Origin: a virus
Taxonomy: Duplodnaviria; Caudoviricetes
IMG/VR virus record: IMGVR_UViG_3300043219_000190
Coordinates: 1 to 53,301 of that record
DNA length: 53,301 nt
Strand: one strand, 5' to 3'
Part shown: positions 6,492-33,497 of the stretch, piece by piece
How positions within the stretch are numbered: the stretch's first letter is position 1
How the letters are laid out: the number at the start of each line of letters is the position of its first letter
Notes under the pieces: generated by a model
Told to the model about the DNA's origin: nothing
What the model saw: the letters and a program-made list of their open reading frames with translations, nothing else
Database searches by the model: none
Made by a program: the position numbers and the translations under genes

Positions 6492-7739
6492 ATGTCTAGT
6501 ACAATAACAACAACACGGTTTGTAATGAACAGTCAAATGAATCAAAGTGCAAAACTTGCAAGAATTGCAACTCCATTTTTAGCAATGTATAATTTACAAC
6601 AAGCTATTATAGATATGGCATCAGATCAAATTACCGTAGAACTTTTTAAAGGTAATGAAAAAGTAGCCGTATTAGTTAGACGTTTAGTAGGTTCAGGTTC
6701 AAGTGCCGATAATAACACAATTAGACCTGGAATATCTGGTGCAGATGATTATTTATTTGCTTTAATTGAACAAAAAATGGCATTACCAGAAGGAACTTTA
6801 AATAAAAGAGTTCCAGGTGAACCAGAAAGAGTTACAGGTGGAGATAAAGGCGAACGTAAAAGATTTAGACGTCGTTATTGGTTTATGAAATTATCTCTTG
6901 ATATGATTTGTCGTGTTATTAGAAAAAATGAGCAATTATGTCAACAATCTCACTTTGATTCAGAAATGGAAATTAAAGATAATTTTCAAGGTGATACTAA
7001 ATTAGTATTCCCACGTTCTGCAGCTCTTGGAAACAGAACAGTAACAGCAGCATGGTCTGACGCTGCAAATGCAAAACCTTGGACAGATATTGCCCTTGCT
7101 TTTAAAGCAATCAGAAAGCATTCACAAATTAATAATAACAAACTTAGATATGCTTTTTTATCTGATTCTGCAATGACTAACCTAAGAGCTATTTACAGAG
7201 ATCAAAGACCAGGCGAAGGACCAGACGTTAATAAGCTAAACAACACTTATAACTTTAACCCAGACAATGGCGAACCAAAACCATTTAGTTTCCTAATTAA
7301 CAACGGAATGGAATATGGTGGATGGTTAAGAGGTGAAGAGTTTGGTAACGTAAAAGTACACCTTTTCACACTTCCGGAAGGTTATGACACAATAGAGGAC
7401 GATTCAAGTTCAAACTTTGAATCATGGATAACAGGCGAAACAATATGTGTAGGTTTATTTGATCCATCGTACTATAGATCATACTATGGTCCTGGAACAA
7501 AAGTACCACCAGAAGATTCTGTAATGACAAAGGCTATTGGTAAAAAAGGAATAATTCAGGTTCCAGCAATCGCAGGTTTAACTATCGGTAATTCTGGAAT
7601 TCCAACAGAAACAATGATGGTCAACCTTTACCCTCTTGGTCAAGACGATGGTTTTGGTGCATCAACACAACATGCTCCAATTTATGCCCCTGAAGTGTTA
7701 GACATTACAGCAACAATTGACACAGAAACAACAGTTTAA
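6492..7739 (+). CDS. Major capsid protein (lambda gpE-like)
   Basis: Size, synteny, WSDAANAKP..DI motif, C-terminal QHAPIYAP motif. Confidence 0.85.
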   Translation: MSSTITTTRFVMNSQMNQSAKLARIATPFLAMYNLQQAIIDMASDQITVELFKGNEKVAVLVRRLVGSGSSADNNTIRPGISGADDYLFALIEQKMALPEGTLNKRVPGEPERVTGGDKGERKRFRRRYWFMKLSLDMICRVIRKNEQLCQQSHFDSEMEIKDNFQGDTKLVFPRSAALGNRTVTAAWSDAANAKPWTDIALAFKAIRKHSQINNNKLRYAFLSDSAMTNLRAIYRDQRPGEGPDVNKLNNTYNFNPDNGEPKPFSFLINNGMEYGGWLRGEEFGNVKVHLFTLPEGYDTIEDDSSSNFESWITGETICVGLFDPSYYRSYYGPGTKVPPEDSVMTKAIGKKGIIQVPAIAGLTIGNSGIPTETMMVNLYPLGQDDGFGASTQHAPIYAPEVLDITATIDTETTV

Positions 7740-11446: not shown

Positions 11447-11965
11447 ATGGACAATGAAAACGAAAATCAAGTTATGACACGTGAGAACGCAATTGCAGAA
11501 TTAAACAGAATTACAAAGTATTTCGGTTTTAATATCTCAATGGAAGTAGTCGAGCAGAAAATGACAGTTGAAATGAATAACATGCCTGTACACATCCAAC
11601 AAGAAAGAGTCGACGCAGATGTATTTATTACAAAAATTATGTCTGGGAAAATTAAATTTGACGACGATATAAATAAATTAGTTTTAACATTAAACGAACC
11701 AATTACAACAGATACAGGAACTACTTCAGAAATATGTTTTGGTAAAGTTACAATGGCAACAGTTAAAAGTATAAAATGGACAAATGATAAAAACAAAACT
11801 CAATCAGTCCAGTTAAAAGAAATCAATTTTGGAACTATGGACGATAAAAGAGCCGACGCCGTATTAATGGCCATGTCTGGAATATCAGATCATGAAATAT
11901 TTAGTAATTTAGAAATAACCGATATGTTAGACCTTAAATTCATCGGAGCATACTATTTCAACTAA
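11447..11965 (+). CDS. Tail assembly chaperone (G/gpE-like)
   Basis: Between tube and tape measure; C-terminal IFSNLEITDM..L....YF pattern. Confidence 0.7.
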   Translation: MDNENENQVMTRENAIAELNRITKYFGFNISMEVVEQKMTVEMNNMPVHIQQERVDADVFITKIMSGKIKFDDDINKLVLTLNEPITTDTGTTSEICFGKVTMATVKSIKWTNDKNKTQSVQLKEINFGTMDDKRADAVLMAMSGISDHEIFSNLEITDMLDLKFIGAYYFN

Positions 11966-12138
11966 TCCTTAATTGGGTATTTGTAATATGTACCCGATTT
12001 CAAGTTTTACCATCTTGGTATGTAAAAACAAAAACATGGGAAGATTTAGCCATGGATTACGAAATGGCTAAAACCGCCAATGAAATAGACCAACAGAAAG
12101 AAGATGCTAGGTATAAGCAGATTTCTGGGAATAAATAG
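11938..12138 (+). CDS. -1 frame extension of tail chaperone (GT/E'-like), not in ORF track
   Basis: Open -1 frame overlapping the chaperone end: LNWVFVICTRFQVLPSWYVKTKTWEDLAMDYEMAK...; no own SD/start; followed by a terminator. Confidence 0.65.
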   Translation: MHRSILFQLILNWVFVICTRFQVLPSWYVKTKTWEDLAMDYEMAKTANEIDQQKEDARYKQISGNK

Positions 12139-12142
12139 GATT

Positions 12143-12170
12143 AGTGGGAACCGAAATTCCCACTTTTTTG
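12143..12170. terminator. Terminator between convergent genes
   Basis: AGTGGGAA-ccgaaa-TTCCCACT followed by a T run. Confidence 0.8.
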
Positions 12171-12179
12171 TTTATAAGG

Positions 12180-12356
12180 TTAATCTAAAACCCATCTTAA
12201 AATTCTTAAATCAGCTTTTATGTTATCAAGTTCACCCTCTAAATCTTCAATATCATAATTATCATCTTCTTTAGAATTTTTAATATAACCCCTTGTTTTA
12301 GATAAAGCTTTTTCTCTATCTATAATCCTTTCTTCTACTTGCTCAATTGTTTTCAT
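12180..12356 (-). CDS. Small coiled-coil cargo protein (start MKTIEQ)
   Basis: AAGGAG SD preceded by UUCG hairpin. Confidence 0.7.
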   Translation of the reverse strand: MKTIEQVEERIIDREKALSKTRGYIKNSKEDDNYDIEDLEGELDNIKADLRILRWVLD

Positions 12357-12386
12357 ATTATCTCCTTGCCCCGAAGGGCTCAATTG

Positions 12387-12650
12387 TTATGCCAACATGT
12401 CTCCGATACAATCGGTACTAAAAGGGTTTTCCCAAGCATTTGGAACTTCCGCCCTTGTATCAATTGCGCCCATATTAGAAAGCTTTTCAACAGTATCCTG
12501 TAATTTTGAATATAATTTTTGATATGTCAATGTTTCAGGGTTTGACCACCTTAATTTGGCTATTAGGCTTGAAGTGATTGATTCTAAAGTCTCTTGGTCA
12601 TCTGTTCTATTTATTAACGCTATAGTAACTCTTTTAATCTCTGTCATCAT
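12387..12650 (-). CDS. Hypothetical cargo protein
   Basis: ORF with AAGGGG SD downstream of leftward promoter. Confidence 0.65.
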   Translation of the reverse strand: MMTEIKRVTIALINRTDDQETLESITSSLIAKLRWSNPETLTYQKLYSKLQDTVEKLSNMGAIDTRAEVPNAWENPFSTDCIGDMLA

Positions 12651-12667
12651 GTACCCCTTTTCTTCCC

Positions 12668-12766
12668 TAACTATCTACACAATACCACAACCATTTAATC
12701 ATGTCTACTATATCCAACAAAAAAACACACTTTTTTTAATTTATTTTTAATGCTATAATAAAACCT
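12668..12766. promoter_or_regulatory. Divergent promoter module copy 1
   Basis: Minus: TAGACA (12702-07), 17 bp, TATTGT. Plus: TGcTATAAT (12751-59), 7 nt before tape-measure ATG. Confidence 0.8.
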
Positions 12767-14803
12767 ATGGGACGAAGATTTATTATTCAGACAGATTACA
12801 AATCAGATGGTTCACAAGTTTTAAAAACTCAATCAAAAATGTCACGGTCTTTTTCAAGATTAGCAACTAACATGGCAGATAAAAATTCCATGATTTCAAG
12901 ATCATTTGGAAAAGTTAATCAATCAATAAATCGTGTTGCTATGGTTGGACTAGTTGCATTAATTGGTGCTTTTGGTTTAGCTGCTAATGAGTTTATTAAA
13001 TTCGACCAAACCATAACTGGTGCGAATGCAAGATTTAAAGATACCGTTTTAGGATCACAGCAAGCCGTCACGAATTTAGCATTGCTCAAAAAAGAAGCAC
13101 GAGCAGTTGCAGCAACTTCACAATTCTTAGGAACAGAGACAGCAGCAGGTTTAAACTTCTACGCAAAAGCAGGTTTCACAACCACTGAAGCCATGGCAGT
13201 TTTAGCCGATACAATAGATTTGGCAACAGTAGCCGAAGCAGATTTTAATAGAACCGCCGATATTTCATCAGACTTGTTAGGTGCATTAGGTAAAAATGTT
13301 CAAGATTCAGCCAAAAAAATAGAGAATTTAAAAGATATAAATAGAGCATTAGGTTTAACCGCTAATAGTGCAAATGTAGATTTGGAAGATTTATTCGAAA
13401 CCTTAAAAGTAGCTGCACCGATCGCAACGGCTGCAGGTGAAGGAATGCATGAACTTTTCGCAATCACTGGAGCATTGGGTGGTGCAGGTATTAAGGGTTC
13501 AATGGGTGCAACAGCATTAAAGAATGCTTATATAAGATTAGCAGCACCAACGGACAAAGTTACAGCAGCATTGGATAGGTTGGGATTAAGTCAAAAAGAT
13601 TTTGTAACCGCCGATGGTGATATGAAATCCATGGTTAATATAATGAAACAGTTAGGGGATGCATCAAAAGATTTAGGTAATGCCGATCAATTAGGTATAT
13701 TCTCAGAAATATTTGGAAAGAATGCAGTAGCTGGAGCCGTTAATTTATCTAAATCATTATCAGAAATAGAATTTATTATGGCAAAACTTGAATCCGCAAC
13801 AGCCTTAAAAGATCTAGCCGATGAAATCAGAACAGGTTTAGGAATGCAAATAGAAATATTAAAATCGGGATTACTAGAATTAGGTTTTCAATTTGTCGAA
13901 ACGTTCGAGAAAGATGGTCGGGGAGCTTTAGAGGAAATGATTAAATCGGTTCAAAGTTTCGATATTCAACCCATTGTTGAAATTTCAAAAGTATTTGTAT
14001 CTTTCATTAAATTCATAGCCAAAAACTGGAAAACCCTAGTCATTTTTGCAGCTGGAATTAAAGCCGTTGGTATAGCAATGGGAATTTTAACAATAGCCAC
14101 ACAATTTTTTGGTGTAGCATTAGCAGCAACCCCTGTCGGAATGATAATAACCGCCGTATTCTTATTCGGTGCAGCATTAGCCTTTTTATGGACACACATA
14201 GACGAAGTTAACACAGTAGTTAAGATCATGGGTAATTGGTTCAAATGGTTAGGAAAAGTAATCCTAGATTTCTTAATAATGGTCGGAAAGAAAATATTAA
14301 ATCTTCTTTTAGCTCCAATAAGATTAGCCGTTTCAATAATACAGGTACTTGCAGAAAAATGGGACGCTATTAAAAAATCATTCGCAGACGGTGGTTTTTT
14401 AAATGGAATATTAGGATTAGGAAAGACTCTATTGTCGGCAGTATTAGCCCCAATACAGGCTATTTTGGAACTAATTAGTAAAATCCCTGGTATTGGAAAC
14501 CTTGCAAAAGGTGGTGCTCTAAAGATTGAGGAAATAAGGAAATCACTAATAGATTTTAAAGATATACCTGAACAAAATAAACCAGAATTTCTACAACCAG
14601 AACAACCAACACCACAATTTCCATCAGTATTTAATACTAACACAGCACAAACCCCACAACCAACACCGCCAGAAGGTTCAAGTGGATCGGGTACACTAGA
14701 TATTAATATAAATGATAAATCTAACGGCAATGCAGAAGTTAAACAGAGTCGTAACATGCCGATTGGTGTTAATATTGGTATTAGCCCAACTTATGGGTTT
14801 TAG
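12767..14803 (+). CDS. Tape measure protein (TP901-like core)
   Basis: AAGLNFYAKAGF, GIKGSMGATALK, IFGKNA motifs; hydrophobic repeats. Confidence 0.93.
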   Translation: MGRRFIIQTDYKSDGSQVLKTQSKMSRSFSRLATNMADKNSMISRSFGKVNQSINRVAMVGLVALIGAFGLAANEFIKFDQTITGANARFKDTVLGSQQAVTNLALLKKEARAVAATSQFLGTETAAGLNFYAKAGFTTTEAMAVLADTIDLATVAEADFNRTADISSDLLGALGKNVQDSAKKIENLKDINRALGLTANSANVDLEDLFETLKVAAPIATAAGEGMHELFAITGALGGAGIKGSMGATALKNAYIRLAAPTDKVTAALDRLGLSQKDFVTADGDMKSMVNIMKQLGDASKDLGNADQLGIFSEIFGKNAVAGAVNLSKSLSEIEFIMAKLESATALKDLADEIRTGLGMQIEILKSGLLELGFQFVETFEKDGRGALEEMIKSVQSFDIQPIVEISKVFVSFIKFIAKNWKTLVIFAAGIKAVGIAMGILTIATQFFGVALAATPVGMIITAVFLFGAALAFLWTHIDEVNTVVKIMGNWFKWLGKVILDFLIMVGKKILNLLLAPIRLAVSIIQVLAEKWDAIKKSFADGGFLNGILGLGKTLLSAVLAPIQAILELISKIPGIGNLAKGGALKIEEIRKSLIDFKDIPEQNKPEFLQPEQPTPQFPSVFNTNTAQTPQPTPPEGSSGSGTLDININDKSNGNAEVKQSRNMPIGVNIGISPTYGF

Positions 14804-14824
14804 ATATTTAAGGAGAAATAAACC

Positions 14825-15982
14825 ATGCCAGTACAAGTTAAATCAATAAAAGAAAATGCTCAAAATTCACTAACTGATATAGAGTCAAAAACTAATCAAA
14901 ACACTCCAGAGGTGGACGTTGCATATAATAGAATAGTTGCAAATGCACAAGCTGGTTTAGCTACATTGTGTCAAATCCATAATGTGGATCAAAGAAAAGA
15001 ATGTTTTCCACAAACCGCAACTGAAAAAGTGGGTCTATTATTTTGGGCTGGTTTAGTTAATAGGCCACGTGGTAAAGGTACGCAAGCAGAATTACAAGCA
15101 TTAGCAACAGGAACCGACGGTGTAACTTTAGGCTCTGGTAGTACCGGTCCACGTTGGATCGCAAACAGCGGAATAAACTACACAACTAAAACAGGTGGAT
15201 TAATCTCTGGTGGAAGTGTATCTATAACCGTTTTAGCTAATCAATACGGTGTTGAGGGTACTCTACAAATAGGTGACGAAATAACTTTAACAACTACAAT
15301 CCCAGGAGTTAATACAACCGCCACAATCACAGCAATAAACGTTGTAGGTGCTGAAGAGGAAAACGTGGAAGCGTGGAGATCCGCAATTATACAGTTAGCA
15401 GCCTTCCCACCAAACACTGGAACCTCTTCATGGTTTTTTAACGAAACTATATCAGTACCTGGTATAACTAGATGTTACCCATATGTAAATCAAACATTCC
15501 CGGGACAGGAACTATTATATTGTGTTGCAGATGATAATGTTGACGGAACCCCAACAGCCCCACAATTAGACGCCGTAGAAGATCACTATAAAACAGCAAA
15601 TAAAAATATAATGTGGTCAACCGATCTATTACCGAATGCAGAAAAAAGAATAATAGCTCTAGTTTCACCATTCGACGTTTACGATGTAGTAATAACGGAC
15701 GGAACCCCAGCACTTTCTGCAAGTTTAAAAACCAAAATAGAAGCATCAATAAATAATTATTTCCTAACACGTAACCCATTTATCCTTGGTCTATCCCTAT
15801 TAAATCAAGGCTCAGTCGAAAAAGTAGCAATAACAGCAGTTGCACAAAATACAATCGATGCACAAACAGGAGAAACTGGAAAATTCACAGATATCGGATT
15901 AACTAAACAAGGTTTTCCACCAGAAGATGCATATATACTAATGCCAGGTTATCGGGCTACAGCTAATATTAGTTATACTTAA
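14825..15982 (+). CDS. Baseplate J / Mu gp47-like wedge protein
   Basis: FPQTAT, VGAEEENVEAWRSAI, SVPGITRCY, PTAPQLDAV motifs. Confidence 0.88.
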   Translation: MPVQVKSIKENAQNSLTDIESKTNQNTPEVDVAYNRIVANAQAGLATLCQIHNVDQRKECFPQTATEKVGLLFWAGLVNRPRGKGTQAELQALATGTDGVTLGSGSTGPRWIANSGINYTTKTGGLISGGSVSITVLANQYGVEGTLQIGDEITLTTTIPGVNTTATITAINVVGAEEENVEAWRSAIIQLAAFPPNTGTSSWFFNETISVPGITRCYPYVNQTFPGQELLYCVADDNVDGTPTAPQLDAVEDHYKTANKNIMWSTDLLPNAEKRIIALVSPFDVYDVVITDGTPALSASLKTKIEASINNYFLTRNPFILGLSLLNQGSVEKVAITAVAQNTIDAQTGETGKFTDIGLTKQGFPPEDAYILMPGYRATANISYT

Positions 15983-16015
15983 TTATTGACATTATGATGT
16001 ATCAAGACTATATTT
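15979..16015 (+). promoter_or_regulatory. Promoter, copy 1 of a 37-bp direct repeat
   Basis: TTGACA (15986-91), 17 bp, TATATT; one mismatch to 16429-16465. Confidence 0.85.
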
Positions 16016-16043
16016 TCATTAGGCAGACAGACAGGAGACACAA

Positions 16044-16376
16044 ATGATTTTAAAATTAGGTTACACAGATTTAGACGGTATCAATGTATTTAGGTATGTT
16101 GAAGATTTTACAGAGTTAAAGATTACTCCTTTTTTAACAACTAAATATAAATATAATAAAGAAAGTAATATGGTTATTTACAATAAAAAGCATGATGTTC
16201 AAGGGGTAGACCTTTTATTTAACCCTAAAATATTAGAAGATAACGAAGTTAAAGAAATGAATATTACATACCTTTATTTCTTAGATACTAAAACATCTAC
16301 ATATATTTCATACGCTTGTTTATCTGATTCAGTATTTTTAATGAATGATAACGGTAAAACAATAGATAAATATTAA
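16044..16376 (+). CDS. Moron-type hypothetical protein
   Basis: Own promoter, CAGGAG SD and terminator; ends FLMNDNGKTIDKY. Confidence 0.75.
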   Translation: MILKLGYTDLDGINVFRYVEDFTELKITPFLTTKYKYNKESNMVIYNKKHDVQGVDLLFNPKILEDNEVKEMNITYLYFLDTKTSTYISYACLSDSVFLMNDNGKTIDKY

Positions 16377-16395
16377 AAAAATAAACAGTCTGCTC

Positions 16396-16426
16396 AAACC
16401 CTTTAATCTAATTAGAGGGTTTTTTT
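16396..16426. terminator. Intrinsic terminator
   Basis: AACCCTTTAA/TTAGAGGGTT stem with T run. Confidence 0.8.
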
Positions 16427-16428
16427 AA

Positions 16429-16465
16429 TTAATTATTGACATTATGATGTATCAAGATTATATTT
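16429..16465 (+). promoter_or_regulatory. Promoter, copy 2 of 37-bp direct repeat
   Basis: 450 bp after copy 1; no sizeable plus-strand ORF downstream. Confidence 0.8.
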
Positions 16466-16536
16466 AACCCAGTCATGAAATTCAAAATTTTATTTTCTTA
16501 GTTATCTTGGCACAATACTCTCCTTAATGATTTAAC

Positions 16537-16746
16537 TTAGTACCCGTCACAGGGTACTTTTTTGTTTACAAGGTAGTTTTTATTTAAGTCCTGTAACCAA
16601 GATTCATAACCAAACCATTTAAAATTGTTTTCAATTTGCCTTTTATGAGTATTTTTTAAATTAATTATTGTCGCAATATCCATGTTACAGGATATTGCGT
16701 TATTTAAAGTTTCAGTAAATAGGATTTCTAGTTTCATATTATTCAC
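16537..16746 (-). CDS. Hypothetical cargo protein
   Basis: GTGA overlap with upstream ORF. Confidence 0.55.
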   Translation of the reverse strand: MNNMKLEILFTETLNNAISCNMDIATIINLKNTHKRQIENNFKWFGYESWLQDLNKNYLVNKKVPCDGY

Positions 16747-16919
16747 CTCAGTTCAGAAACAAGTCCACCTATAGCAGAAGGAGTAAACCCATATTTTTTA
16801 TACATCTTCTTAGAAAATACTAGCGTAATTTTATTATTATTCTCCTCTAAAAACTTTTTTATTTCATTTTTCACAACTTCTCTTCGTTGTAATCCATTAT
16901 TAATCCCATATTTATTCAT
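16743..16919 (-). CDS. 58-aa cargo protein (MNKYGINNGLQRREVV...), not in ORF track
   Basis: Hand-translated ORF with AAGGAG SD preceded by UACG hairpin. Confidence 0.7.
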   Translation of the reverse strand: MNKYGINNGLQRREVVKNEIKKFLEENNNKITLVFSKKMYKKYGFTPSAIGGLVSELR

Positions 16920-16942
16920 ATTATCTCCTTACCCCGTAGGGC

Positions 16943-17170
16943 TTATTTGTTAAACCAAGTTGTAGCATCAATATGATTAACTGGATATTCTTTTGATACA
17001 TTACCAAGAACAACTCGAACTAATTCAGTCCCTTTCTTAGATACTCTAAAACCAACTAAATCAAAGTCACCATCACGTATCATCTCTTTTACAGTTTTAA
17101 AATCCGATTCAACAACCTCTTGGCTTAAAAACTCTCTTAATCTGTTTATTTCTTTTCTATTTAACATCAC
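16943..17170 (-). CDS. Hypothetical cargo protein
   Basis: First ORF after leftward promoter, AAGGTGG SD. Confidence 0.65.
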   Translation of the reverse strand: MMLNRKEINRLREFLSQEVVESDFKTVKEMIRDGDFDLVGFRVSKKGTELVRVVLGNVSKEYPVNHIDATTWFNK

Positions 17171-17189
17171 TGTACCACCTTTCCTTATT

Positions 17190-17289
17190 TAACTATCTAT
17201 ATAATACCCTTTATAACTAATCATGTCTACAAAAATAACCAAAATAAACAATCTTTTTTAAATTATTTTTTCATGCTATAATAACCCTT
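17190..17289. promoter_or_regulatory. Divergent promoter module copy 2
   Basis: Minus: TAGACA (17224-29), 17 bp, TATTAT. Plus: TGcTATAAT (17274-82), 7 nt before ATG 17290. Confidence 0.8.
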
Positions 17290-18174
17290 ATGGATAACCT
17301 AATCGAAAAATCATTAAAATCATTATTTCCAACTGGTGAAATTGCATGGGACGGCATGAATAACGGAACCATGAGAGAGATTTCCGACGGTTTAGCAATT
17401 CAAGGTGATCGTGATTATAAAGACGGTAAATCAATAGTTACTGATTTCTACCCAAATACGACCACACTACAAACCGAATGGGAAGAAACATATAAACTAC
17501 CAGCAGGTGAGATATTAACCCCAGAACAGCGAACAGCGCGATTAAATGCCGTTTGGTCACGTGAAGAGGTGGCAAGTTTTGACGGTATGAATCATATGTA
17601 TGAATTATCGGGAATTCCAGTTATCGCACGACCTCTATTACCTAGTGAAGATCCAAGAGTTATTGCAGAAGCCAAACCCGTATTTGATGTTTTTACAACA
17701 GTATTCGATGATGTAGTTTTTGGTGTCGATTCAGTATTCGGGGGATTCTCAGAAATTGAAGCGGAATTTCTCCCAACAATATTTGCAGACGGTCGACCAG
17801 GTGATCCAGCAATTAATTATTTAACAGTTTTCGACGATATAGTTTTCGGAGTAGATTCAGTATTCGGAGACTTTGAAGGTTCAAGAGTAGATCCGCCACA
17901 ATTAACAATTCCAGATGAAACTTGGACATGGCCTATGATCTATATAATAGAAGGACTAGACGGTGAATTTGCAGAAATACCAATCGAATTAAAAGATGCA
18001 TATGAATTTTTAACATATAAAAATAAACCCAATTTTATGTGGGCAATATCGAGAGTTGTATTTTTTGAAGAACCAATTCCAGTATTTAACGAAAATATAG
18101 TAACAGACGATGGGTTTACATTTGTCACAGATGATGGATTCAATATAGTAACACAAACCACGGAGGAAATTTAA
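17290..18174 (+). CDS. Mu gp48/YmfQ-like baseplate protein with internal repeats
   Basis: LKSLFPTG.IAW, P.TT..LQTEWEE...LP, EQRTARL, terminal KP motif. Confidence 0.8.
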   Translation: MDNLIEKSLKSLFPTGEIAWDGMNNGTMREISDGLAIQGDRDYKDGKSIVTDFYPNTTTLQTEWEETYKLPAGEILTPEQRTARLNAVWSREEVASFDGMNHMYELSGIPVIARPLLPSEDPRVIAEAKPVFDVFTTVFDDVVFGVDSVFGGFSEIEAEFLPTIFADGRPGDPAINYLTVFDDIVFGVDSVFGDFEGSRVDPPQLTIPDETWTWPMIYIIEGLDGEFAEIPIELKDAYEFLTYKNKPNFMWAISRVVFFEEPIPVFNENIVTDDGFTFVTDDGFNIVTQTTEEI

Positions 18175-18175
18175 C

Positions 18176-18895
18176 ATGGCAGATAAACCATTCAAAAGTA
18201 CATCATATGATGCAGCGCAGGACATAACAGAAGCACAGGACGGTTTTTTAATCGAGCAACCGTCATTCGCTGGAGTACGTAAACAAACATGGATTCTATT
18301 TTCATCAGTAAGAGCATGGATATTAACATTTTCCGAATTCGCCCAAATGACATATAATAAAAGTGCAATTGCTGCTAATAAAAATCAAATTGAAAACAAT
18401 AAAGGTGAAATTGACGGGCATAGTGTTGATATTAATAATAATAGTAATGCTATTAATAGTAATGTTACCGATATTGGTAATAATACTACTGCGATTGGTG
18501 TTAATGCTGGAAATATTTCTGATAATGATACCGATATTGGTAATTTACAAAATAAAACACCACAGAGCTATAAAACAACTGATGCTGTTGAATTTGTCAG
18601 TGTTAAAAGTTCAGTTTATTTTATCGAAGAGTCATCTAAGATTGCTGGTGATATATATGATGAAATGATAATATCAGTATTGAAAGATGTGGGAGATATC
18701 TGTATAGTATCTGGAACCGCAAATATTTCTGGTCTTAGAAGAAATATTTCATTCATGGAAAGAAAAACCTCTACACAGATATATGTTTACACTTATAACC
18801 ATGACTCTGGGGCTCTTATTACCGTGATTATTAATTCAGCTAGTGCATCAGTATGGTCTAATGTATTATTTTGCACTGGAATACATAAAGTATAA
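18176..18895 (+). CDS. Fibre-like virion protein with trimeric coiled coil
   Basis: About nine I-x-x-N-x-x-x heptads followed by a beta-rich head. Confidence 0.55.
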   Translation: MADKPFKSTSYDAAQDITEAQDGFLIEQPSFAGVRKQTWILFSSVRAWILTFSEFAQMTYNKSAIAANKNQIENNKGEIDGHSVDINNNSNAINSNVTDIGNNTTAIGVNAGNISDNDTDIGNLQNKTPQSYKTTDAVEFVSVKSSVYFIEESSKIAGDIYDEMIISVLKDVGDICIVSGTANISGLRRNISFMERKTSTQIYVYTYNHDSGALITVIINSASASVWSNVLFCTGIHKV

Positions 18896-18903
18896 AAGAT
18901 CAC

Positions 18904-19383
18904 TTAATAAAATAATTCATCAAAACTATAGCTATACTTGACATCACTATCAACCCTACGTCCTGTTTGTGGTTCAATTAAGTCACCGTTTGATAATTGA
19001 ACCACAGCATGATTTGCATTTCCACCTTCGATAATTGTTCTAGAATCCTCAATTAGTACTAAGTTAGCTTTTTCCCCTTTTTTTACATAAAGAATATTTA
19101 TATATAGTATAGCGAAATCTTCACAATCACCACTTTTGTTTAAAAAAGTTTCTTCAGGTGACTGAAATTCATCTCTAATGTCGACTTTATATTCAATCAT
19201 ATGCCTTAATTTAAACCCTAAGTTAAAGTAAGTGCTAAAATCAGGAAGATAATCACTGGCATATATTTCTAAACTACCATCATTTATGCGTTCATATATT
19301 AAAGAATCAATCCTCATGCTAGAACTTTCCAATTCACATCCCATAAACAAAATACAAAAAACAGTAATAATAATCTCTTTCAC
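18904..19383 (-). CDS. Lipoprotein with transglutaminase-like Cys-protease domain
   Basis: Start probably GTG 19383 after GGAGGGG; signal ...ILFMG-C; GDCEDFA and HAVV motifs. Confidence 0.8.
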   Translation of the reverse strand: MKEIIITVFCILFMGCELESSSMRIDSLIYERINDGSLEIYASDYLPDFSTYFNLGFKLRHMIEYKVDIRDEFQSPEETFLNKSGDCEDFAILYINILYVKKGEKANLVLIEDSRTIIEGGNANHAVVQLSNGDLIEPQTGRRVDSDVKYSYSFDELFY

Positions 19384-19399
19384 AATAAACCCCTCCAAC

Positions 19400-19495
19400 A
19401 TATCTACAGAATACCATCAATACTAACTAATGTCTATAACATACACCATTAAATACAATCTTTTTTAATTATATTAATCATGCTATAATAAAAGT
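19400..19495. promoter_or_regulatory. Divergent promoter module copy 3
   Basis: Minus: TAGACA (19431-36), 17 bp, TATTCT. Plus: TGcTATAAT (19481-89), 6 nt before ATG 19496. Confidence 0.8.
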
Positions 19496-19915
19496 ATGAT
19501 TAATATAACAAATAACACCCAATATAACGGCGAACCAGCAATAATAAACGGCGATGTAGTTAAAAACGGCGGTGATTATAAAAGAGTAACAGCCCTAAAT
19601 AATAAAATACTAATCTTGGTCGGTACAGATTCAGGTTATTGGGGTAATTTAATCGAACCTGTTAACTCTCAAATAAAAGGCGGTCTAGAATTATTAAAAG
19701 GGCGTGCGATCACATCAAACTTTTTAAAAGAACATACCCAAAAAGTAGAATCGTTATTAAGTCCCATGATTACAAGTAAACAGGCAAAAAGCGTAAAAGC
19801 AGAATCATTTAATAGATTTGCTGATCGTGTAGATTGGACTGCGTTAATTGTTTTAAAAGATGGACAGAAGTATTATTTTGAAAGTAGTACAGGTGAAGGA
19901 AAATTTATTAATTAG
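19496..19915 (+). CDS. Mu gp46-like baseplate wedge protein
   Basis: GYWGN, L.PMI....AKSV pattern; size. Confidence 0.7.
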   Translation: MINITNNTQYNGEPAIINGDVVKNGGDYKRVTALNNKILILVGTDSGYWGNLIEPVNSQIKGGLELLKGRAITSNFLKEHTQKVESLLSPMITSKQAKSVKAESFNRFADRVDWTALIVLKDGQKYYFESSTGEGKFIN

Positions 19916-19938: not shown

Positions 19939-20214
19939 ATGGCAAATAATCCACAATTCCCAGTGAATTTAGTTAAAGAAACTTGGACAAAAATAGCAAC
20001 TGGAGTATTAACAGGAACAATTTACAACCGAAAAACTACAGTCGGGTATTTTCAAACATTTAGAGTGACAGGAGATCCAGCACCAACGGATTTAAACGAA
20101 GGGGTATCTATGTTTTTAGAACATCCAGATTACGAACCAATAGGAAGTGATAGTCCTATAGACGTGTGGGTTTTCTGTCGTGGTAAAGATGGAATTTTAA
20201 GGGTAGATCTATGA
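19939..20214 (+). CDS. Small beta-rich putative virion protein
   Basis: AAGGAG SD; in late unit. Confidence 0.5.
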   Translation: MANNPQFPVNLVKETWTKIATGVLTGTIYNRKTTVGYFQTFRVTGDPAPTDLNEGVSMFLEHPDYEPIGSDSPIDVWVFCRGKDGILRVDL

Positions 20215-20747
20215 TAGGAAACGGCGGAATAAACATAAAACCATTACCTGCAGATGATGCAATTTATCAGGCTTTGGACACTGTGGGGGATGGTTCAGGA
20301 GCCACAAATCAGGCTGTAAACGGTAGTTCAACCCCTGTTAAGTTTTTAATAAAACCTCCCGTTACAGAAAAATATATTCTAAAAAGATTAAATTTACATG
20401 CAATAGATTCAAATTGGAACAATGCAGGTTTTTATGGTGCTATTGCACTATTAGCAAACGGAATTAGAATATACATTGAAAATGATGAGGGTATTATAAA
20501 AGAATATACCAGTAATTTTAAAATACAACGAACCCATGATTGGGCGCTATTAGCTGGTGCAGATGTTACGACAATAGGAAACGCCGGAGCCGATCCCTTG
20601 GTTGTAAGGTGGACATTCGCAAGTGGTTACTCAAATATCACTCTTGACGGTTCTAAAAATGAAAGATTTGTTATGGAAATACCCGATAATCTATCAGGAC
20701 TTGATTATCAAGTTGCAACCGTTCAAGGAGGTAAAACCTTATTATGA
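20211..20747 (+). CDS. Putative virion accessory protein
   Basis: ATGA-coupled; AVNGSSTPVKF motif. Confidence 0.5.
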   Translation: MIGNGGINIKPLPADDAIYQALDTVGDGSGATNQAVNGSSTPVKFLIKPPVTEKYILKRLNLHAIDSNWNNAGFYGAIALLANGIRIYIENDEGIIKEYTSNFKIQRTHDWALLAGADVTTIGNAGADPLVVRWTFASGYSNITLDGSKNERFVMEIPDNLSGLDYQVATVQGGKTLL

Positions 20748-21298
20748 TTGGCAACGGTAAATTTTCACCTGTAAAATCTATAATTCCTGGTTCAAACGTA
20801 ACATCTAATATAACCGTGGAACTTATTAAAAAAGGTTTTATGTATACTGTTCAAACTGTAATTACTGGATTAACAGTGGATTCTGTAAAAAACTTTTATC
20901 TTGATCCATCAGCATTCACAGGGGATTTTTTAGTTATTTATGAATTATCTTATGCAGTTTCACAAGGCAAAGGAGTTGGTGAAATTTTTGTCACGGGGGA
21001 TTATGAACAGGGAACACTTCTTTCTGCATTTAATAGAAACGAAAATTCTTCAAATACTCCTCAGTCTAAAATTTCAGTAGATCCAACAATAAACGATCTA
21101 GGAGTAGGGACTTTTAAATATTTAGCAGGTTCAGAAGCACAAGGTAATAATTTAGGTGGTGGCGGCTTTAAAGGAAATCCAGATTTCCCACTAGAAGTAA
21201 ATAAAACACTGGACAGAATATTTAGAGTAACACAATCAGGCGGTTCTGGAACTTATGACCTAGAATTAAGACTTGTATTCGCTGAAATAACCGTTTAA
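20744..21298 (+). CDS. Putative virion accessory protein
   Basis: ATGA-coupled; same MIGNG start as previous gene. Confidence 0.5.
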   Translation: MIGNGKFSPVKSIIPGSNVTSNITVELIKKGFMYTVQTVITGLTVDSVKNFYLDPSAFTGDFLVIYELSYAVSQGKGVGEIFVTGDYEQGTLLSAFNRNENSSNTPQSKISVDPTINDLGVGTFKYLAGSEAQGNNLGGGGFKGNPDFPLEVNKTLDRIFRVTQSGGSGTYDLELRLVFAEITV

Positions 21299-21299
21299 T

Positions 21300-21329
21300 C
21301 TTGACATACGACAAGACCTGATATATATT
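21300..21329 (+). promoter_or_regulatory. Promoter with dyad operator CTTGAC-N4-GACAAG
   Basis: TTGACA (21301-06), 17 bp, TATATT, ATG 6 nt later; operator recurs at 26984 and 47068. Confidence 0.8.
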
Positions 21330-26969: not shown

Positions 26970-27043
26970 ATTATTACACAACTCTTGTCATACGTCAAGC
27001 ATTAAACCCTCAATTTGTTATTATCTCGATATTATGATATATT
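26970..27043. promoter_or_regulatory. Divergent promoters with dyad operator copy 2
   Basis: Minus: CTTGACGTATGACAAG (26999-26984). Plus: TTGTTA (27015-20), 17 bp, TGa-TATATT (27035-43). Confidence 0.7.
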
Positions 27044-27670: not shown

Positions 27671-27929
27671 GTAACATTTTTAGTACCCAGTGGTCAGTAT
27701 CACTACCTTTTATATCTGGGCTGGTATTACATTCATGATCTTCTAGACAACCTTGTTCTATTTCGTATTGACCATTAACTATAGGGTCGTTTAAGCCACA
27801 ATTGCCACAACATTTTAATGATTCAATATAATTTTCTATATTTCTTAATGATTCAAAACAGTCTCTAACTGCTCCAGTTTGTCTAACCATTTTGGATAAA
27901 TATTCTAAATCTTTTTTAACATCACACAT
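27657..27929 (-). CDS. Cys-rich hypothetical protein
   Basis: CCGNC motif; start MCDVKK after GAGGTGG. Confidence 0.55.
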   Translation of the reverse strand: MCDVKKDLEYLSKMVRQTGAVRDCFESLRNIENYIESLKCCGNCGLNDPIVNGQYEIEQGCLEDHECNTSPDIKGSDTDHWVLKMLPNLI

Positions 27930-29247
27930 AATAAACCACCTCTCTCCCTTTATCCACCATAAAAATATTATCTCCATAGATCCCATTGGTATCTTTAAAA
28001 AAGTCTAATGTTGCAAGTTCTACGGAATTATATAATTTTGCACACCAACCAATTATAGATAATGTCTCTTCTGCGATAAAAACAACTTCCCTTGCACTAT
28101 TGAAAATTCTTTCATTTAGGTTTTTAACGGTATTACTCACGATTGTTTTATTTAGTATTGAATAATCAAAGTATTGTGTAAAAAATGTTGATGCACCAAA
28201 TATTGATGCTCGGTCGCCTAGTATTTCAGTAGTGTTTAATGCAGAACTTAAAACCGCTTGGATGGTCTCGATTATTTGTGGTCTGGATAAATAACCGCCT
28301 GTAACCTCTGTTTCACCCGATTGTATTTCTGATATTGTGATTGACTCTGTTGATACGGCACTGTAATTTATTGCGGAAATTCCAGCTAATGAAGATAAAC
28401 CGGCAACGCTTAAAATATTTTTACCTGAAGGCGAACCGCTTTTAAATTCGTTCTCGTCTGTTTCTGAGAATCCCAAAACATCATTAACATATTCTTGATA
28501 TGCGGATAATCTTAAAGTAGCTTGGTCTACTGCTAACATTGGTAACTGGATTAAATTCTGCATTTGCCGTGCAAGATCAAATGGCGCTCGTGCTAATGTG
28601 TCAATATCATCTAATATATTTCCAGCGGTTGTACTAAATAATATTGCAACTTCATCTACAGCACCAGCAATTGACGATAATCTTTCGGTCGCAGTATTAA
28701 CAGCAGATACAGCACTATTAACTAAACTTGCAAATCCTGCCCCTGTGGACAAATCAACACTATTTGCAAAGTCATTAGCCTGTTCTATATTTAATTCATC
28801 GATTGCTGAAGCCGTCGCACTTGCGGAACTGGATAACGGGTCACCACCCAATAGGTTAGGTATATCTTTTAAAAATGTTACAGTAATTTTAGCAATACCA
28901 GATTTTTTAGTAGTATTCTGTCCATAATTAATAGATGATATTACCACAGGAAAAGTTCCTAAACTTGGATCTGGATGTTCTAATTCACCAACACTATCCT
29001 CTGTCTTTTTCTCATTAAATGCATCCCGAATTTCTTTTAAAAAATCTTGATTATCAATTAATAATACAAATGTATAATCACCAGTATTTAATGAATTATC
29101 TTGATGAAATATTCCATCCTGTCCAGCGAATTGGAACGACCCTAAATTATGTATTACTGAGTCGTTTAATTCGCCGTCGAAAGGGAATTCAAGTCTAGTG
29201 CCTGTTTCTGGTGATGTGTAGGCTAGGTTTCTGTAGTTTGTTATCAT
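27922..29247 (-). CDS. Mu gpN/gp43-like DNA circularisation (tube initiator) protein
   Basis: GELEHPDPSLG N-terminal motif, helical middle, LysM-like C-terminus (CAKLYN...NGI). Confidence 0.78.
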   Translation of the reverse strand: MITNYRNLAYTSPETGTRLEFPFDGELNDSVIHNLGSFQFAGQDGIFHQDNSLNTGDYTFVLLIDNQDFLKEIRDAFNEKKTEDSVGELEHPDPSLGTFPVVISSINYGQNTTKKSGIAKITVTFLKDIPNLLGGDPLSSSASATASAIDELNIEQANDFANSVDLSTGAGFASLVNSAVSAVNTATERLSSIAGAVDEVAILFSTTAGNILDDIDTLARAPFDLARQMQNLIQLPMLAVDQATLRLSAYQEYVNDVLGFSETDENEFKSGSPSGKNILSVAGLSSLAGISAINYSAVSTESITISEIQSGETEVTGGYLSRPQIIETIQAVLSSALNTTEILGDRASIFGASTFFTQYFDYSILNKTIVSNTVKNLNERIFNSAREVVFIAEETLSIIGWCAKLYNSVELATLDFFKDTNGIYGDNIFMVDKGREVVYYV

Positions 29248-29522
29248 GATAATTCCTTTATTTTAATTGGTTTAGCACAGTAAGGGCAAACTTTGAAGCT
29301 TTTATATTGATGTGGTTTTATAGCATTATCATGACCGCATGTTGTTTCTGCCACCCACTTGCTAAAGGGCTTCCATTCACATTCTTCTTTTTCCCATTCT
29401 GAACTTTTTAAAACTTCTGGTTCAGAACAAATCTCGACTTCACCTTTAAAACCTTTTTGATTTCTAACTAACTTATATTTAAAGCAATTAGGATATTTTA
29501 AGCAAAAATCTTTACAAGTCAT
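29244..29522 (-). CDS. Zn-ribbon hypothetical protein
   Basis: TTCGH...FKVCPYCAKPI. Confidence 0.6.
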   Translation of the reverse strand: MTCKDFCLKYPNCFKYKLVRNQKGFKGEVEICSEPEVLKSSEWEKEECEWKPFSKWVAETTCGHDNAIKPHQYKSFKVCPYCAKPIKIKELS

Positions 29523-29550
29523 ACACCCTCCACTTTTCTGTAATTTGTTA

Positions 29551-29946
29551 TCATGATAATAAATCCTTGTTTTCGTGTATGTTTCCGATTATTTCAATAT
29601 AGTTCCCATCAGATTCTAAACTTCCCAATAAGGCTTCATTTGGGGTGGCTTCTTTTGTAATAAAATAATGTGCCCCTCTTATGTATTTAACCACACCTTT
29701 ACATGTAGCCATTGGAGCGTACCACATATTAATAATATCCCCTTCGTAAATATCAACACCATTTTTATCTTTTAATCCAGTAAATTGTTCAATAGGATAT
29801 TCGCCATTTATACCATCTATAAAATAGGATGATTTTTTGACATAATCCCAATTGACATATTGACCGCTACACTCCTTTGAATCTACCTCTGATATATCTT
29901 TTGGTATTGATTTATCCCATATCCTAAATTTTAATTCTCTTTTCAT
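29551..29946 (-). CDS. YopX family protein
   Basis: RELKFRIWD, QFTGLKDKNGVDIYEGDI, EIIGNIHEN. Confidence 0.95.
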   Translation of the reverse strand: MKRELKFRIWDKSIPKDISEVDSKECSGQYVNWDYVKKSSYFIDGINGEYPIEQFTGLKDKNGVDIYEGDIINMWYAPMATCKGVVKYIRGAHYFITKEATPNEALLGSLESDGNYIEIIGNIHENKDLLS

Positions 29947-30221
29947 ACACCCTCCACACCATTCATTAATGCTTTAATCTTATCATACTTAGCAATCAAA
30001 CCCTCTAAGTTATCCACTTTTGACAGTTTTAATTCTAACTCTTTATTTTTATTATACATATCGATTAACACATAAATATATTTTGGTGGGGTAATTGCTC
30101 CCTCACGTGCTGAAATATAATTAGATAAAGTATTTCTCTTCACTCCAAATAATAAACCTGCTTCGGTCTGGTTAATGTTATTTTCTGCGATGAAATTTCT
30201 TATTGTTTGTTTATTGTTCAT
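29943..30221 (-). CDS. XRE-like HTH protein
   Basis: INQTEAGLLFGVKRNTLSNY. Confidence 0.75.
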   Translation of the reverse strand: MNNKQTIRNFIAENNINQTEAGLLFGVKRNTLSNYISAREGAITPPKYIYVLIDMYNKNKELELKLSKVDNLEGLIAKYDKIKALMNGVEGV

Positions 30222-30568
30222 TTTTTATTTGTCTCCTTTTCTGGTTTACCGTGATGATTAGCAATAATCACCTTACAACACTCTTTATCTATTTTACTAA
30301 AACAATGCTCTTTTAATACCCATCGTTTCTCGTGTGTTGGATTATTTACAGTCCAGACATATACAGGAGCATCATCAGGATAATTATCACCTGTTCTTTT
30401 TTCCCATTCTGAAACAGTTTCATGTTTAGGGATATCGATAACCTGTAATAATTCTTGACAATCTCTTCTACCTAATTCAATAGAACTTATTAATTCGCTA
30501 TCTGCAACATTGTGTAACATTTCAGAATATTTCTCTCTTAACTTCTCAATCACCGCCATCTCCCTCAA
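30218..30568 (-). CDS. Hypothetical protein
   Basis: ORF in early operon. Confidence 0.55.
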   Translation of the reverse strand: MREMAVIEKLREKYSEMLHNVADSELISSIELGRRDCQELLQVIDIPKHETVSEWEKRTGDNYPDDAPVYVWTVNNPTHEKRWVLKEHCFSKIDKECCKVIIANHHGKPEKETNKK

Positions 30569-30667
30569 CTTCTAATATCTCCAAATCAATCTCAGCTAAT
30601 TTTAACATCTTTTTTGCAAGCTCAATTTTTGTTTCCTGTAACTCTTTTTTTAGTTCTTCAAGTTTTG

Positions 30668-31506: not shown

Positions 31507-31532
31507 AACTACGCTCCTCAACGTTCAAATAT

Positions 31533-31567
31533 ACTTATACAATACCATAACAATAACTTAATGTCTA
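31533..31567 (-). promoter_or_regulatory. TAGACA-class promoter (leftward half of module)
   Basis: TAGACA (31562-67), 17 bp, TGG-TATTGT; abuts the stop of the hub gene. Confidence 0.75.
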
Positions 31568-33494: not shown

Positions 33495-33497
33495 AGT

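Follow-up and report, generated by a model that had tools for sequence, protein, structure and literature searches.

Paired promoter-like modules and antisense gene islands in the tail operon of an uncultured phage from marine sediment

The window analysed here is the whole of IMG/VR virus record IMGVR_UViG_3300043219_000190 (53,301 bp, linear class, estimated completeness 81%), and the subject is a module of about 100 bp that occurs three times in the tail operon of this phage, each time between an island of small genes read leftward and a tail gene read rightward. The best explanation of the whole, which from the sequence we put at a probability of about 0.6, is that antisense islands are lodged in the tail operon and that the tail gene following each of them would restart from an extended -10 promoter (class C below), giving a leaderless mRNA. 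As an earlier note on this DNA had proposed, the modules look like divergent promoter pairs, both in their sequence anatomy and in their conservation.

A repeat search returned one family with three 91-nt copies, at 12672-12762, 17194-17284 and 19401-19491, with 63-73% identity to the reference copy. A second family of 47 nt, corresponding to the left half, also covers 31523-31569 and 34222-34268. Together with a MAFFT alignment and pattern counts this confirms the three homologous modules of about 100 bp described earlier, and the repeat family and pattern matches likewise confirm the leftward halves said to recur at 31533-67 and 34231-68. In the alignment ATGTCTA, CTTTTTT, ATGCTATAATAA and ATG are invariant. 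The module is the entire spacer between the leftward and rightward start codons, with gaps of 116, 119 and 94 nt. The combined pattern ATGTCTA..TTTTTT..TGCTATAAT has three forward and no reverse matches, and reversed-pattern controls gave none; the distance from ATGTCTA to TGCTATAAT is 50, 51 and 51 nt, and this geometry of 50-51 nt is found in all four full modules of the window and of L004, a related IMG/VR contig. In module 1 (12672-12762) the leftward -10 and -35 elements lie at 12679-12684 and 12702-12707 on the minus strand, followed by a T-rich box at about 12729-12740 and the rightward TGCTATAAT at 12751-12759. Module 2 (17194-17284) has the leftward -10 at 17201-17206, the -35 at 17224-17229, AATCTTTTTTAA at 17250-17261 and TGCTATAAT at 17274-17282, and in module 3 (19401-19491) the same elements are at 19408-19413, 19431-19436, 19457-19468 and 19481-19489. 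There is no hairpin within the 91-nt modules; terminator-like hairpins are found outside them, at 12143-12164, 16396-16422 and 16539-16558. Low-complexity chance matching was considered as a source of the modules and rejected on the left-half and combined-pattern counts against shuffles and reversed controls: three modules and two extra left halves exist and exceed chance. Leftward of the modules two, three and one open reading frames (ORFs) were counted, in line with the one to three unrelated small genes reported before. The structural genes to the right had been called a tape measure, a gp48-like and a gp46-like gene; the tape measure stands (phrog_28), and the other two are assigned to baseplate wedge subunits (phrog_203 and phrog_180).

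The left half, here termed class B, lies on the minus strand and consists of TAGACA, a 17-nt spacer, TATTNT and then GTAGATA, with -35 and -10 elements of the sigma-70 type; TG precedes TATTNT in four of the five copies. With up to two mismatches allowed, the pattern TAGACAT-N15-GTATTNTNTA has five matches (at 12.7, 17.2, 19.4, 31.5 and 34.2 kb), all on the minus strand, against 0.52 expected, and none of 100 shuffles reaches five. A generic promoter scan also flags all three leftward sites, at 9-10 of 12 consensus positions. The class B leader is about 25-35 nt long and has a good Shine-Dalgarno sequence (-8.0 kcal/mol for the cargo gene c1b and -11.3 kcal/mol for c2c). All five class B promoters head lineage-specific blocks of small genes, ORFans that lie between genes adjacent in distant relatives. 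The solo copy at 31536-31567 (minus strand) heads six small genes (29244-31521), one of them encoding a YopX-family protein, between two baseplate hub genes; these are separated by 25-280 nt in the distant relatives L005, L006 and L007 and are split in the window by this 2.3-kb block. The solo copy at 34235-34266 (minus strand) heads four small genes (32841-34204) upstream of a hub gene; over 38 nt that take in the spacer it is 92% identical to the promoter of module 3. None of the ten genes in the two blocks has a match in the 11 loci searched, and the records of L005, L006 and L007 give no match to the class B pattern. Both solo blocks are co-directional with their neighbours and have no class C partner, as would be expected if only a gene behind an antisense island requires the right half.

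The right half, class C, has the layout AATCTTTTTTAA, 11 nt, CATGCTATAAT, 6-7 nt, ATG, without a -35 hexamer. TG followed by a perfect TATAAT is the textbook extended -10 element. The gap from TATAAT to ATG is 7, 7 and 6 nt in the window, and in L004, where the right half is present at all three sites, 6 nt at each. As the -10 element is only 6-7 nt from the ATG, there is no space for a leader or a Shine-Dalgarno sequence. The genes concerned are the tape measure gene (12767-14803, plus strand; phrog_28, 9.3e-47; ATG 7 nt after the -10), which is a candidate leaderless gene, and two baseplate wedge genes that also have no Shine-Dalgarno sequence, g294 (17290-18174, plus strand, 294 residues; phrog_203, 1.2e-6; 7 nt) and g139 (19496-19915, plus strand, 139 residues; phrog_180, 2.7e-5; 6 nt). 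Their Shine-Dalgarno pairing energies are +1.5, +1.5 and -0.4 kcal/mol, with a median of -7.9 kcal/mol over 85 ORFs; ranked by weakness among the 85, the two genes at +1.5 are tied second to fourth and g139 is 11th. The homologues of the tape measure gene have energies of -8.9 (L005), -9.2 (L006) and -4.5 kcal/mol (L007), those of g294 range from -3.6 to -9.2 in eight loci, and those of g139 are -10.9, -3.8 and -1.0 in three loci, the start in L015 being uncertain. The N-termini of the module genes align from residue 1 with the homologues in the relatives, and the tape measure N-terminus MGRRFIIQTD is conserved in L004-L007. Since these N-termini are shared with homologues that bear a Shine-Dalgarno sequence, the annotated ATGs are the true starts. 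It would seem most likely, from the spacing, that transcription from the extended -10 starts at or next to the A of the AUG and gives leaderless mRNAs. That both halves are promoters is judged quite probable on these features, and leaderless starts are judged reasonably probable.

Class C is not confined to the modules. TGnTAnnnT, with no more than one of six positions departing from TATAAT, was sought at 5-8 nt before the start codons of ORFs of 50 residues or more; this gave seven matches, against a mean of 0.185 and a maximum of 3 in 200 mononucleotide shuffles, a crude control in that long ORFs are rare in shuffled sequence. One match, at 10518, is internal to a gene, and four of the other six precede structural genes, namely the tape measure, the two wedge genes and g260, a 260-residue minor tail gene (41441-42223, minus strand; phrog_4688, 5.9e-6). 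The last of these matches (42224-42238, minus strand) consists of TGATATAAT and 6 nt before the ATG at 42223, outside any module. The remaining two precede the first gene of the rightward arm (TGCTATACT, 8 nt, ATG at 101) and a 206-residue gene at 27050 (TGATATATT, 6 nt, GTG). In L006 CATGCTATAAT-6-ATG is found at the start of a baseplate hub gene whose product matches the window hub protein at its N-terminus. Its presence before g260 and the L006 hub gene means that class C is not peculiar to the modules; it looks like the promoter type of this lineage for structural or late genes, of which the right halves of the modules would be copies. g260 itself stands alone among replication and recombination genes, and its homologue adjoins a hub gene in L007 and L015.

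Relatives were compared at the DNA level as ten distinct loci. L004, a contig of 25,980 bp, is the sole close relative, with structural genes 70-80% identical in DNA and protein identities of 81% for the baseplate J protein, 81% for g294, 70% for g139 and 84% for a 522-residue protein. A canonical left half is present in L004 at site 3 only. At site 2 it has neither left half nor island, only 159 nt that hold a diverged form of the promoter region termed D15 below, the remnant of a gene start, a plus-strand terminator and the right half. The cargo differs from that of the window at all three sites, as the earlier note had expected of cargo between fixed structural neighbours, the neighbours here retaining their 70-80% DNA identity. 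At site 1 the two ORFs of the window (58 and 87 residues) are replaced by four, encoding a 199-residue Mom-family protein (PF25680, 1.3e-36; 6569-7168, minus strand), two small zinc-ribbon-like proteins and a fourth product of 62 residues counted from a TTG (about 46 from the first ATG) with a sub-threshold NikA-like match. At site 2 the window has ORF110 and three leftward ORFs and L004 has none, and at site 3 the single ORF of the window (c3) stands against two in L004 (142 and 93 residues). The Mom family is familiar from phage Mu, in which DNA modification protects against restriction, and counter-defence genes may be housed in the islands. The 13 cargo proteins include no similar pair (best E-value 0.13), and none has a tblastn match in any other locus. 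The fibre-like protein g239 shares its first 117 residues with a 304-residue counterpart in L004 (58% identity), the remainder being unrelated. In the tape measure gene the ends, like the neighbouring genes, are about 75-80% identical to L004, while the middle (window 12988-14353, L004 7987-9553) is not alignable in DNA and has a protein identity of 35-49%; to judge from the alignments, this is a mosaic replacement inside the gene.

In the distant relatives, with baseplate J identities of 39-59%, modules and islands are absent. The earlier note had counted the absence of the module from relatives against its reading; the distant ones do lack it, but this does not refute the reading, as the close relative L004 keeps the modules. 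The baseplate J gene is at most about 116 nt from g294 in all eight loci that cover both (L005, L006, L007, L009, L010, L013, L014 and L015), compared with 1307 nt in the window. g139 follows g294 within about 40 nt in seven of the eight, compared with 1321 nt in the window; in L009 no g139 homologue was detected after g294. A homologue of g239 is absent from all eight, and in L005, L006, L007 and L016 the tape measure starts directly after the tail assembly chaperone extension. Because the tail genes abut in these distant outgroups, the islands are very probably insertions on grounds of parsimony, and we infer that the lineage of the window and L004 acquired the islands, g239 and the restart promoters.

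On the preferred reading the module would be a complete regulatory spacer in which two promoter types of the phage's own stand back to back, 50-51 nt apart. At sites 1 and 2 a hairpin with a T-run (12143-12170 and 16539-16564) would halt rightward transcription ahead of the islands; at site 3, where a terminator is absent, this transcription would converge with c3, the genes being 8 nt apart. The class B promoter would drive the island leftward, and the class C promoter, which is positioned so that the following tail gene can restart, in keeping with the restart role first suggested for it, would restart the tape measure or wedge protein gene as a leaderless mRNA. The tail operon would thus be cut into pieces by antisense islands, each piece restarting from a copy of the late promoter of the lineage. 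The leftward half may be early and the rightward half late. As the left half depends on a -35 element and the right half does not, a phage factor displacing sigma region 4 would switch the spacer from leftward early to rightward late transcription. Neither a sigma factor nor an obvious late activator is present among the scanned proteins, and no factor of the AsiA or gp39 type was identified, although no search was aimed at one. The islands would be hyperplastic: they comprise ORFans, a gene of the anti-restriction Mom type in L004 and, next to a variable fibre gene, one for a putative secreted lipoprotein that resembles a protease. The firing of both halves, the leaderless mRNAs, the order of early and late and the insertion of the islands are all inferred from sequence.

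A number of points weigh against this reading. The left half of module 2 lacks the TG. The generic scan of the region finds 46 promoter-like sites compared with 41.9 in shuffles, so that consensus likeness alone is weak and the argument rests on position, repetition and conservation. Taken by itself TGCTATAAT has three matches against 0.99 expected, and 7 of 100 shuffles reach three. At site 1 of L004 the left half is degenerate and fails the class B pattern at two mismatches, yet the site has four cargo ORFs. The turnover of cargo is seen in one comparison, that of the window with L004, and the choice of insertion over loss depends on outgroup parsimony. Finally, the rightward genes at 19939-21298 also differ between the two genomes, so that variability is not confined to the islands flanked by modules; with the middle of the tape measure differing as well, mosaicism here is general.

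The alternative that survives best, itself unlikely, is ordinary mosaicism and nothing further, in which the same promoter, Shine-Dalgarno and terminator types would be needed everywhere and islands would be gained and lost by illegitimate recombination and deletion, as in other phages, with the shared joints having no role in exchange. This would suit the confinement of likeness to functional boxes, the stretch between the boxes being 33-56% identical across the module copies, and the divergence of the module-free genes of the tail-fibre region and of the tape measure (35-49%, compared with about 80% for its neighbours). The remnants of gene starts (Shine-Dalgarno sequence, start codon, three codons and stop) at site 2 in both genomes also point to decay by deletion. 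It sits poorly with the 92% identity over 38 nt of module 3 and the 34.2-kb spacer, which includes positions without a known promoter role, and with the fixed geometry of 50-51 nt in all four full modules. Islands 1 and 2, moreover, share a terminator tail, a joint of hairpin and Shine-Dalgarno sequence and the module in the same order with unrelated ORFs between, a collinear scaffold of three joints that points to copying and not to independent invention. The terminator tails in the region of 12143-12179 and at 16556-16574 are 95% identical over 19 nt, and the tail motif has five matches against 0.68 expected. Between the joints at 12352-12389 and 16915-16952 identity is 89% over 38 nt, and a further copy, behind the first gene at site 3 of L004 (13529-13557), is 97% identical to the first of these over 29 nt, above the 70-80% of orthologous genes. 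A small UUCG hairpin with a Shine-Dalgarno sequence between the first and second gene is found in three islands; the 4-bp stem of this repeat, D11, folds and is not clearly more stable than shuffles. A scan of IMG/VR for the joint pattern returned only the contig of L004. We conclude from these likenesses that regulatory units have been copied; exchange at the modules today is no more than a possibility, and help from recombination at the shared joints in the turnover of cargo is put forward tentatively.

A stronger version, which we regard as doubtful, would make the spacer a portable, bidirectional and insulated landing pad, with class B fused at 50-51 nt to a leaderless late promoter, a switch at sigma region 4 and joints at which ORFans are swapped by homologous recombination. 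If true, any start codon in an essential operon could admit an antisense island, and a shuffling system like the PeSL cassettes of T4-type phages would exist outside the T4 group with the leaderless restart as its enabling trick.

The reading favoured in the earlier note, a dedicated and integrase-free cassette system in which the modules are recombination substrates, the phage recombinase swaps the cargo and the restart promoter travels along, is improbable. The differing cargo at all three sites is what it would lead one to expect, and at sites 1 and 2 the blastn alignment of the window to L004 picks up again precisely where the right half begins (window 12730 and 17250). ORF110 lies between 43-nt direct repeats (D15) that are 93% identical and is missing in L004, the joint is 97% identical over 29 nt between site 1 of the window and site 3 of L004, sites 1 and 3 of L004 share an exact run of about 22-23 nt, and a YqaJ-type exonuclease and SSB are encoded. 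The module copies, however, share exact runs of 12-22 nt only, and orthologous pairs of window and L004 modules (62, 66 and 72%) are no closer than paralogous pairs (66-75%), the outcome expected from selection acting on nothing but the promoter boxes. Each half is also found without the other, and the proposed use of the shared flanks as recombinase substrates is not upheld. The copies are, in addition, direct repeats around essential tail genes, which recombination between them would delete, and co-infecting phages would find far longer homology for exchange in the structural genes to either side. The islands are not bounded by inverted repeats, and none of the cargo genes turned up again at another site or in another genome. 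The proposed check for heterogeneity at read junctions gave no variant or alternative junctions in the assembled contigs of one DNA run, probably the source of the record, contigs being apt to hide rare variants; one contig of 34.5 kb spans the region, and a lone backward joint of 550 nt has a 38-nt side that fits the 34.2-kb promoter copy. There is likewise no sign of a dedicated, undescribed system; both halves are ordinary promoter types of this phage that are also found apart, and a dedicated new mobile system is very improbable. Least probable of all is that the right half is not a promoter, transcripts reading through with initiation independent of a Shine-Dalgarno sequence and CATGCTATAAT with the T-box serving as a regulator-binding or RNA-processing site: the missing -35 hexamer, the marginal enrichment of TGCTATAAT alone and the lack of a terminator between g239 and the island at site 3 are outweighed by the textbook TGnTATAAT, its 6-7 nt distance from a conserved ATG at all six sites of two genomes and also at g260 and the L006 hub gene, the plus-strand terminators upstream at sites 1 and 2, and the 0.6-1.3 kb of antisense genes that read-through would have to cross.

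Each component of the preferred reading, that of antisense islands followed by a class C restart, has a precedent. Autonomous units between late genes are already known, and so are regulatory cassettes that flank ORFans and mediate their shuffling, late promoters of the extended -10 type and the placing of a -10 element beside a leaderless ORF. What was not found in the main text of open-access papers is a fixed back-to-back pair with a leaderless late promoter restarting essential tail genes after antisense islands. Regulatory cassettes as points of ORFan exchange are in print for the T4-type phages, where the PeSL cassettes are described as repeated intergenic motifs some 100 bp in length that extend from the stop codon of one gene to the Shine-Dalgarno sequence and start of the following one, with recombination between motifs proposed and mini-circles shown (PMC2839356). 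They accompany ORFans in hyperplastic regions, a few of them inside virion modules, and carry their own promoter and terminator (PMC2839356; PMC4122927). The modules resemble them in size (94-119 nt from start codon to start codon), in their sigma-70-like promoter, of a kind that the D15 repeats also carry, and in the ORFans that differ between close relatives, headed by all five class B promoters; ORF110 with its D15 repeats is the best fit to an ORFan between two motif copies where a relative has one. They differ in that the record is of 53 kb and not T4-type, that the module has no stem-loop, the hairpins being at the far end of the island and between genes, that it is bidirectional with a second half resembling a leaderless-type late promoter for an essential structural gene, and that the islands are antisense to the operon. 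Turnover of the PeSL kind, by recombination at short joints, is plausible here.

A second parallel is with the morons of lambdoid phages, which Juhala et al. and Hendrix et al. reportedly described in 2000 as units with their own promoter and terminator between late genes that are adjacent in relatives. Classical morons are co-directional with the operon and expressed from the prophage. The islands of the window are likewise extra genes between genes adjacent in relatives. Promoter-like and terminator-like sequences are present at sites 1 and 2, and site 3 has no terminator; unlike morons, all three are antisense and would need a restart promoter for the downstream gene. For the right half the closest parallels are in Thermus phages. 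Leaderless late transcripts of phiYS40 were reportedly described by Sevostyanova et al. in 2007. In phage P23-45 middle and late promoters of the extended -10 type without a -35 element are spared by gp39, which displaces sigma region 4 (PMC3950348). For leaderless genes a -10 element adjacent to the ORF has been reported (PMC12340547). The window would be alike in combining a -10/-35 class with an extended -10 class that serves later genes and whose -10 adjoins the ORF, and P23-45 offers a model for a temporal switch; the window differs in its low-GC DNA and in the conserved T-rich box at the -35 position.

The layout suggests how an essential late operon can tolerate antisense islands: a late promoter beside each ATG, with no need of a ribosome-binding site, would remove both polarity and the need to preserve an intergenic leader. 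If this is true, leaderless late expression, known from Thermus phages, would extend to a low-GC myophage lineage of marine sediment and regulatory scaffolds of the PeSL kind would extend beyond the T4-type phages. In this uncultured group CATGCTATAAT-N6-7-ATG and TAGACA-17-TATTNT would then also give an annotation rule for late genes and for accessory, possibly counter-defence, islands. Until there is a host or a transcriptome to work with, the practical use of this is modest.

The left edge of site 1 is the stop codon of the tail assembly chaperone frameshift-extension ORF (11938-12138, plus strand, taken from stop to stop), which is homologous to the stretch that reaches the tape measure start in L005, L006, L007 and L016. 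Distant relatives have a T-rich slippery run (..TATTTTTTC..) just before the first-frame chaperone stop, and this run is shorter in the window and L004 (..CTTTTTC / ..TATTTC..). The distal end of island 1 is a hairpin, T-run and tail TTTTTTGTTTATAAGG (12143-12179, plus strand) that is terminator-like on both strands. Gene c1a (12180-12356, minus strand, 58 residues) is an ORFan with no Pfam or PHROG family, a singleton at 90% clustering, and its own frame scores best. Next along the window is the intercistronic joint, repeat D11 (12352-12389, minus strand), which comprises a stop, a GCCC-UUCG-GGGC hairpin, a AAGGAGAT Shine-Dalgarno sequence and ATGAA. The product of c1b (12387-12650, minus strand, 87 residues) is a near-ORFan with a weak match to phrog_6331, of unknown function, and one other, partial match (2.9e-9) among 1.84 billion representatives; an Atlas look-up gave scores of at most 0.80 and no lead.

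Site 2 follows the baseplate J/gp47-family gene (14825-15982, plus strand; phrog_6, 2.7e-24), which has a normal Shine-Dalgarno sequence. The first D15 promoter copy, TTGACA-17-TATATT (15973-16015, plus strand), matches 11 of 12 consensus positions. It precedes ORF110 (16044-16376, plus strand), a rightward ORFan with only a sub-threshold Pfam match, which is followed by a terminator-like hairpin (16396-16422, plus strand) and the second D15 copy (16423-16465, plus strand), facing a terminator about 75 nt away. An RNA of about 95 nt started from this copy (16436-16564) would be complementary to the 3' end of the leftward island, so that the arrangement is a candidate source of a small antisense RNA or else a duplication scar. 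The distal end of island 2 is again a terminator hairpin with tail, here TTTTTTGTTTACAAGG (16539-16574, plus strand), and is kept in L004. The island comprises c2a (16537-16737, minus strand, 66 residues), for which Pfam and PHROGs give no function; c2b (16743-16919, minus strand, 58 residues), whose coding status is marginal, its own frame scoring 0.128 and one antisense frame 0.172; the second hairpin and Shine-Dalgarno joint (16915-16952, minus strand); and c2c (16943-17167, minus strand, 74 residues), an ORFan with no homologue but itself among 5.8 billion clusters. By phage codon usage six of the seven cargo ORFs score best in their own frame. In an exact look-up of ten sequences nine were in the collection, eight of them as sole member of a 90% cluster, the ninth cluster consisting of two start variants of c3. 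PHROGs, Pfam and Atlas give no function for the small cargo proteins, and in 10 other proteins, small or flanking, Pfam found no family. Homing endonucleases were considered as an identity for the island genes and rejected, as no such domain appeared in the Pfam and PHROG scans.

At site 3 the fibre-like g239 (18176-18895, plus strand, 239 residues) lies tail to tail with c3 (18904-19383, minus strand, 159 residues), 8 nt apart, and L004 has a different secreted protein at this site. The c3 protein begins MKEIIITVFCILFMGC, and its two homologues (52-53% identity) have ..TSC, which we take to be a lipobox signal peptide. It has a predicted transglutaminase-like cysteine protease fold: the Pfam score for DUF553, a transglutaminase-like domain, is 21.5 bits with a cut-off of 20.5, and that for Peptidase_C93 is 16.2 with a cut-off of 27. 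GDCEDF and one His are invariant in the three sequences, the third residue of the triad being unclear. The AF2 model has a pLDDT of 67.6, and Foldseek matches it to PeiP (2.3e-3), 3isr (3.1e-3) and LapG (4fgo, 1.2e-2) with TMq of 0.43-0.55, the two best matches overall being flagellar doublet proteins. In phage T5 the gene for pb5, the receptor-binding protein, adjoins that of the early lipoprotein Llp (PMC9586334). Site 3 is similar, with a tail protein of variable C-terminus followed by the gene of a small secreted lipoprotein that would have its own promoter, both differing in L004; by analogy, and speculatively, c3 could be a receptor-modifying, receptor-blocking or superinfection-exclusion partner of the fibre. 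Unlike Llp, c3 falls outside the Llp/Cor families in Pfam and PHROGs and looks like a cysteine protease of the transglutaminase fold. One c3 homologue, P0064 (53%), is on a Logan contig of 7,774 nt, and a baseplate J relative, P0004 (77%), is on an ENA contig of 7,776 nt; if the two contigs are the same DNA, a second member of the clade keeps a diverged c3 near its baseplate genes.

The GC content of the window is about 30-37%, and the sole sequencing run that contains its DNA is a marine sediment metagenome. Rightward genes at 83-25156 form a sheath/tube-type tail module with the tape measure, baseplate J and wedge proteins. The region from 25.7 to 51.7 kb is mostly leftward and includes the two baseplate hub genes, a helicase, the YqaJ-type exonuclease, SSB, a C5 methylase and a primase-helicase. 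The hub genes (phrog_184 and phrog_177, the second with a LysM domain; 27922-32851, minus strand) are on the opposite strand to the rest of the tail module. No integrase was present among 40 window proteins scanned with Pfam, the record being incomplete, and the Rfam gathering scan and the tRNA scan gave no matches. There is no close cultured phage: blastn of 12000-19900 and tblastn of a 415-residue protein (6492-7739) gave no match among the INPHARED phages, and the baseplate J protein matched 119 INPHARED records, all below 60% identity, the best being Vibrio, Aeromonas and Shewanella phages of 42-53 kb at about 25%. GTDB genome contigs scanned with the baseplate J alignment held no relative. 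A large protein collection contained 51 other baseplate J-related proteins, and the relatives P0002-P0019, on Logan and ENA contigs of which several measure 20-54 kb, have 62-81% identity. A scan of IMG/VR with g294 returned only the contig of L004. The right-half pattern occurs in seven IMG/VR stretches, two of them in the L004 contig; the other five (L017, L018, L020, L022 and L023) were rejected as relatives, having no tblastn match to the 85 window ORFs and being generic sites of a terminator plus an extended -10. In two of these unrelated contigs (L018 4111-4150 and L022 2830-2869) a terminator hairpin is followed by AATGCTATAAT, 7 nt and ATG, and the layout of a terminator and then a leaderless promoter may be common in some uncultured phages.

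Two further features lie apart from the modules. A third promoter type has its -35 TTGACA inside the palindrome-like CTTGACRTAYGACAAGA, which occurs three times against 0.00 expected, at 21300-21316 (plus strand), 26983-26999 (minus strand) and 47067-47083 (minus strand), and could be the operator of an early-gene regulator. Near the right end of the window three exact TTATCCACA sites, which resemble DnaA boxes, fall within 66 nt (51927-51992) of a 655-nt non-coding stretch and are adjoined by a gene for a SegE-type GIY-YIG endonuclease (52359-53231; Pfam 6e-7), and it is likely from this arrangement that 51927-51992 is a replication origin with a free-standing homing endonuclease beside it.

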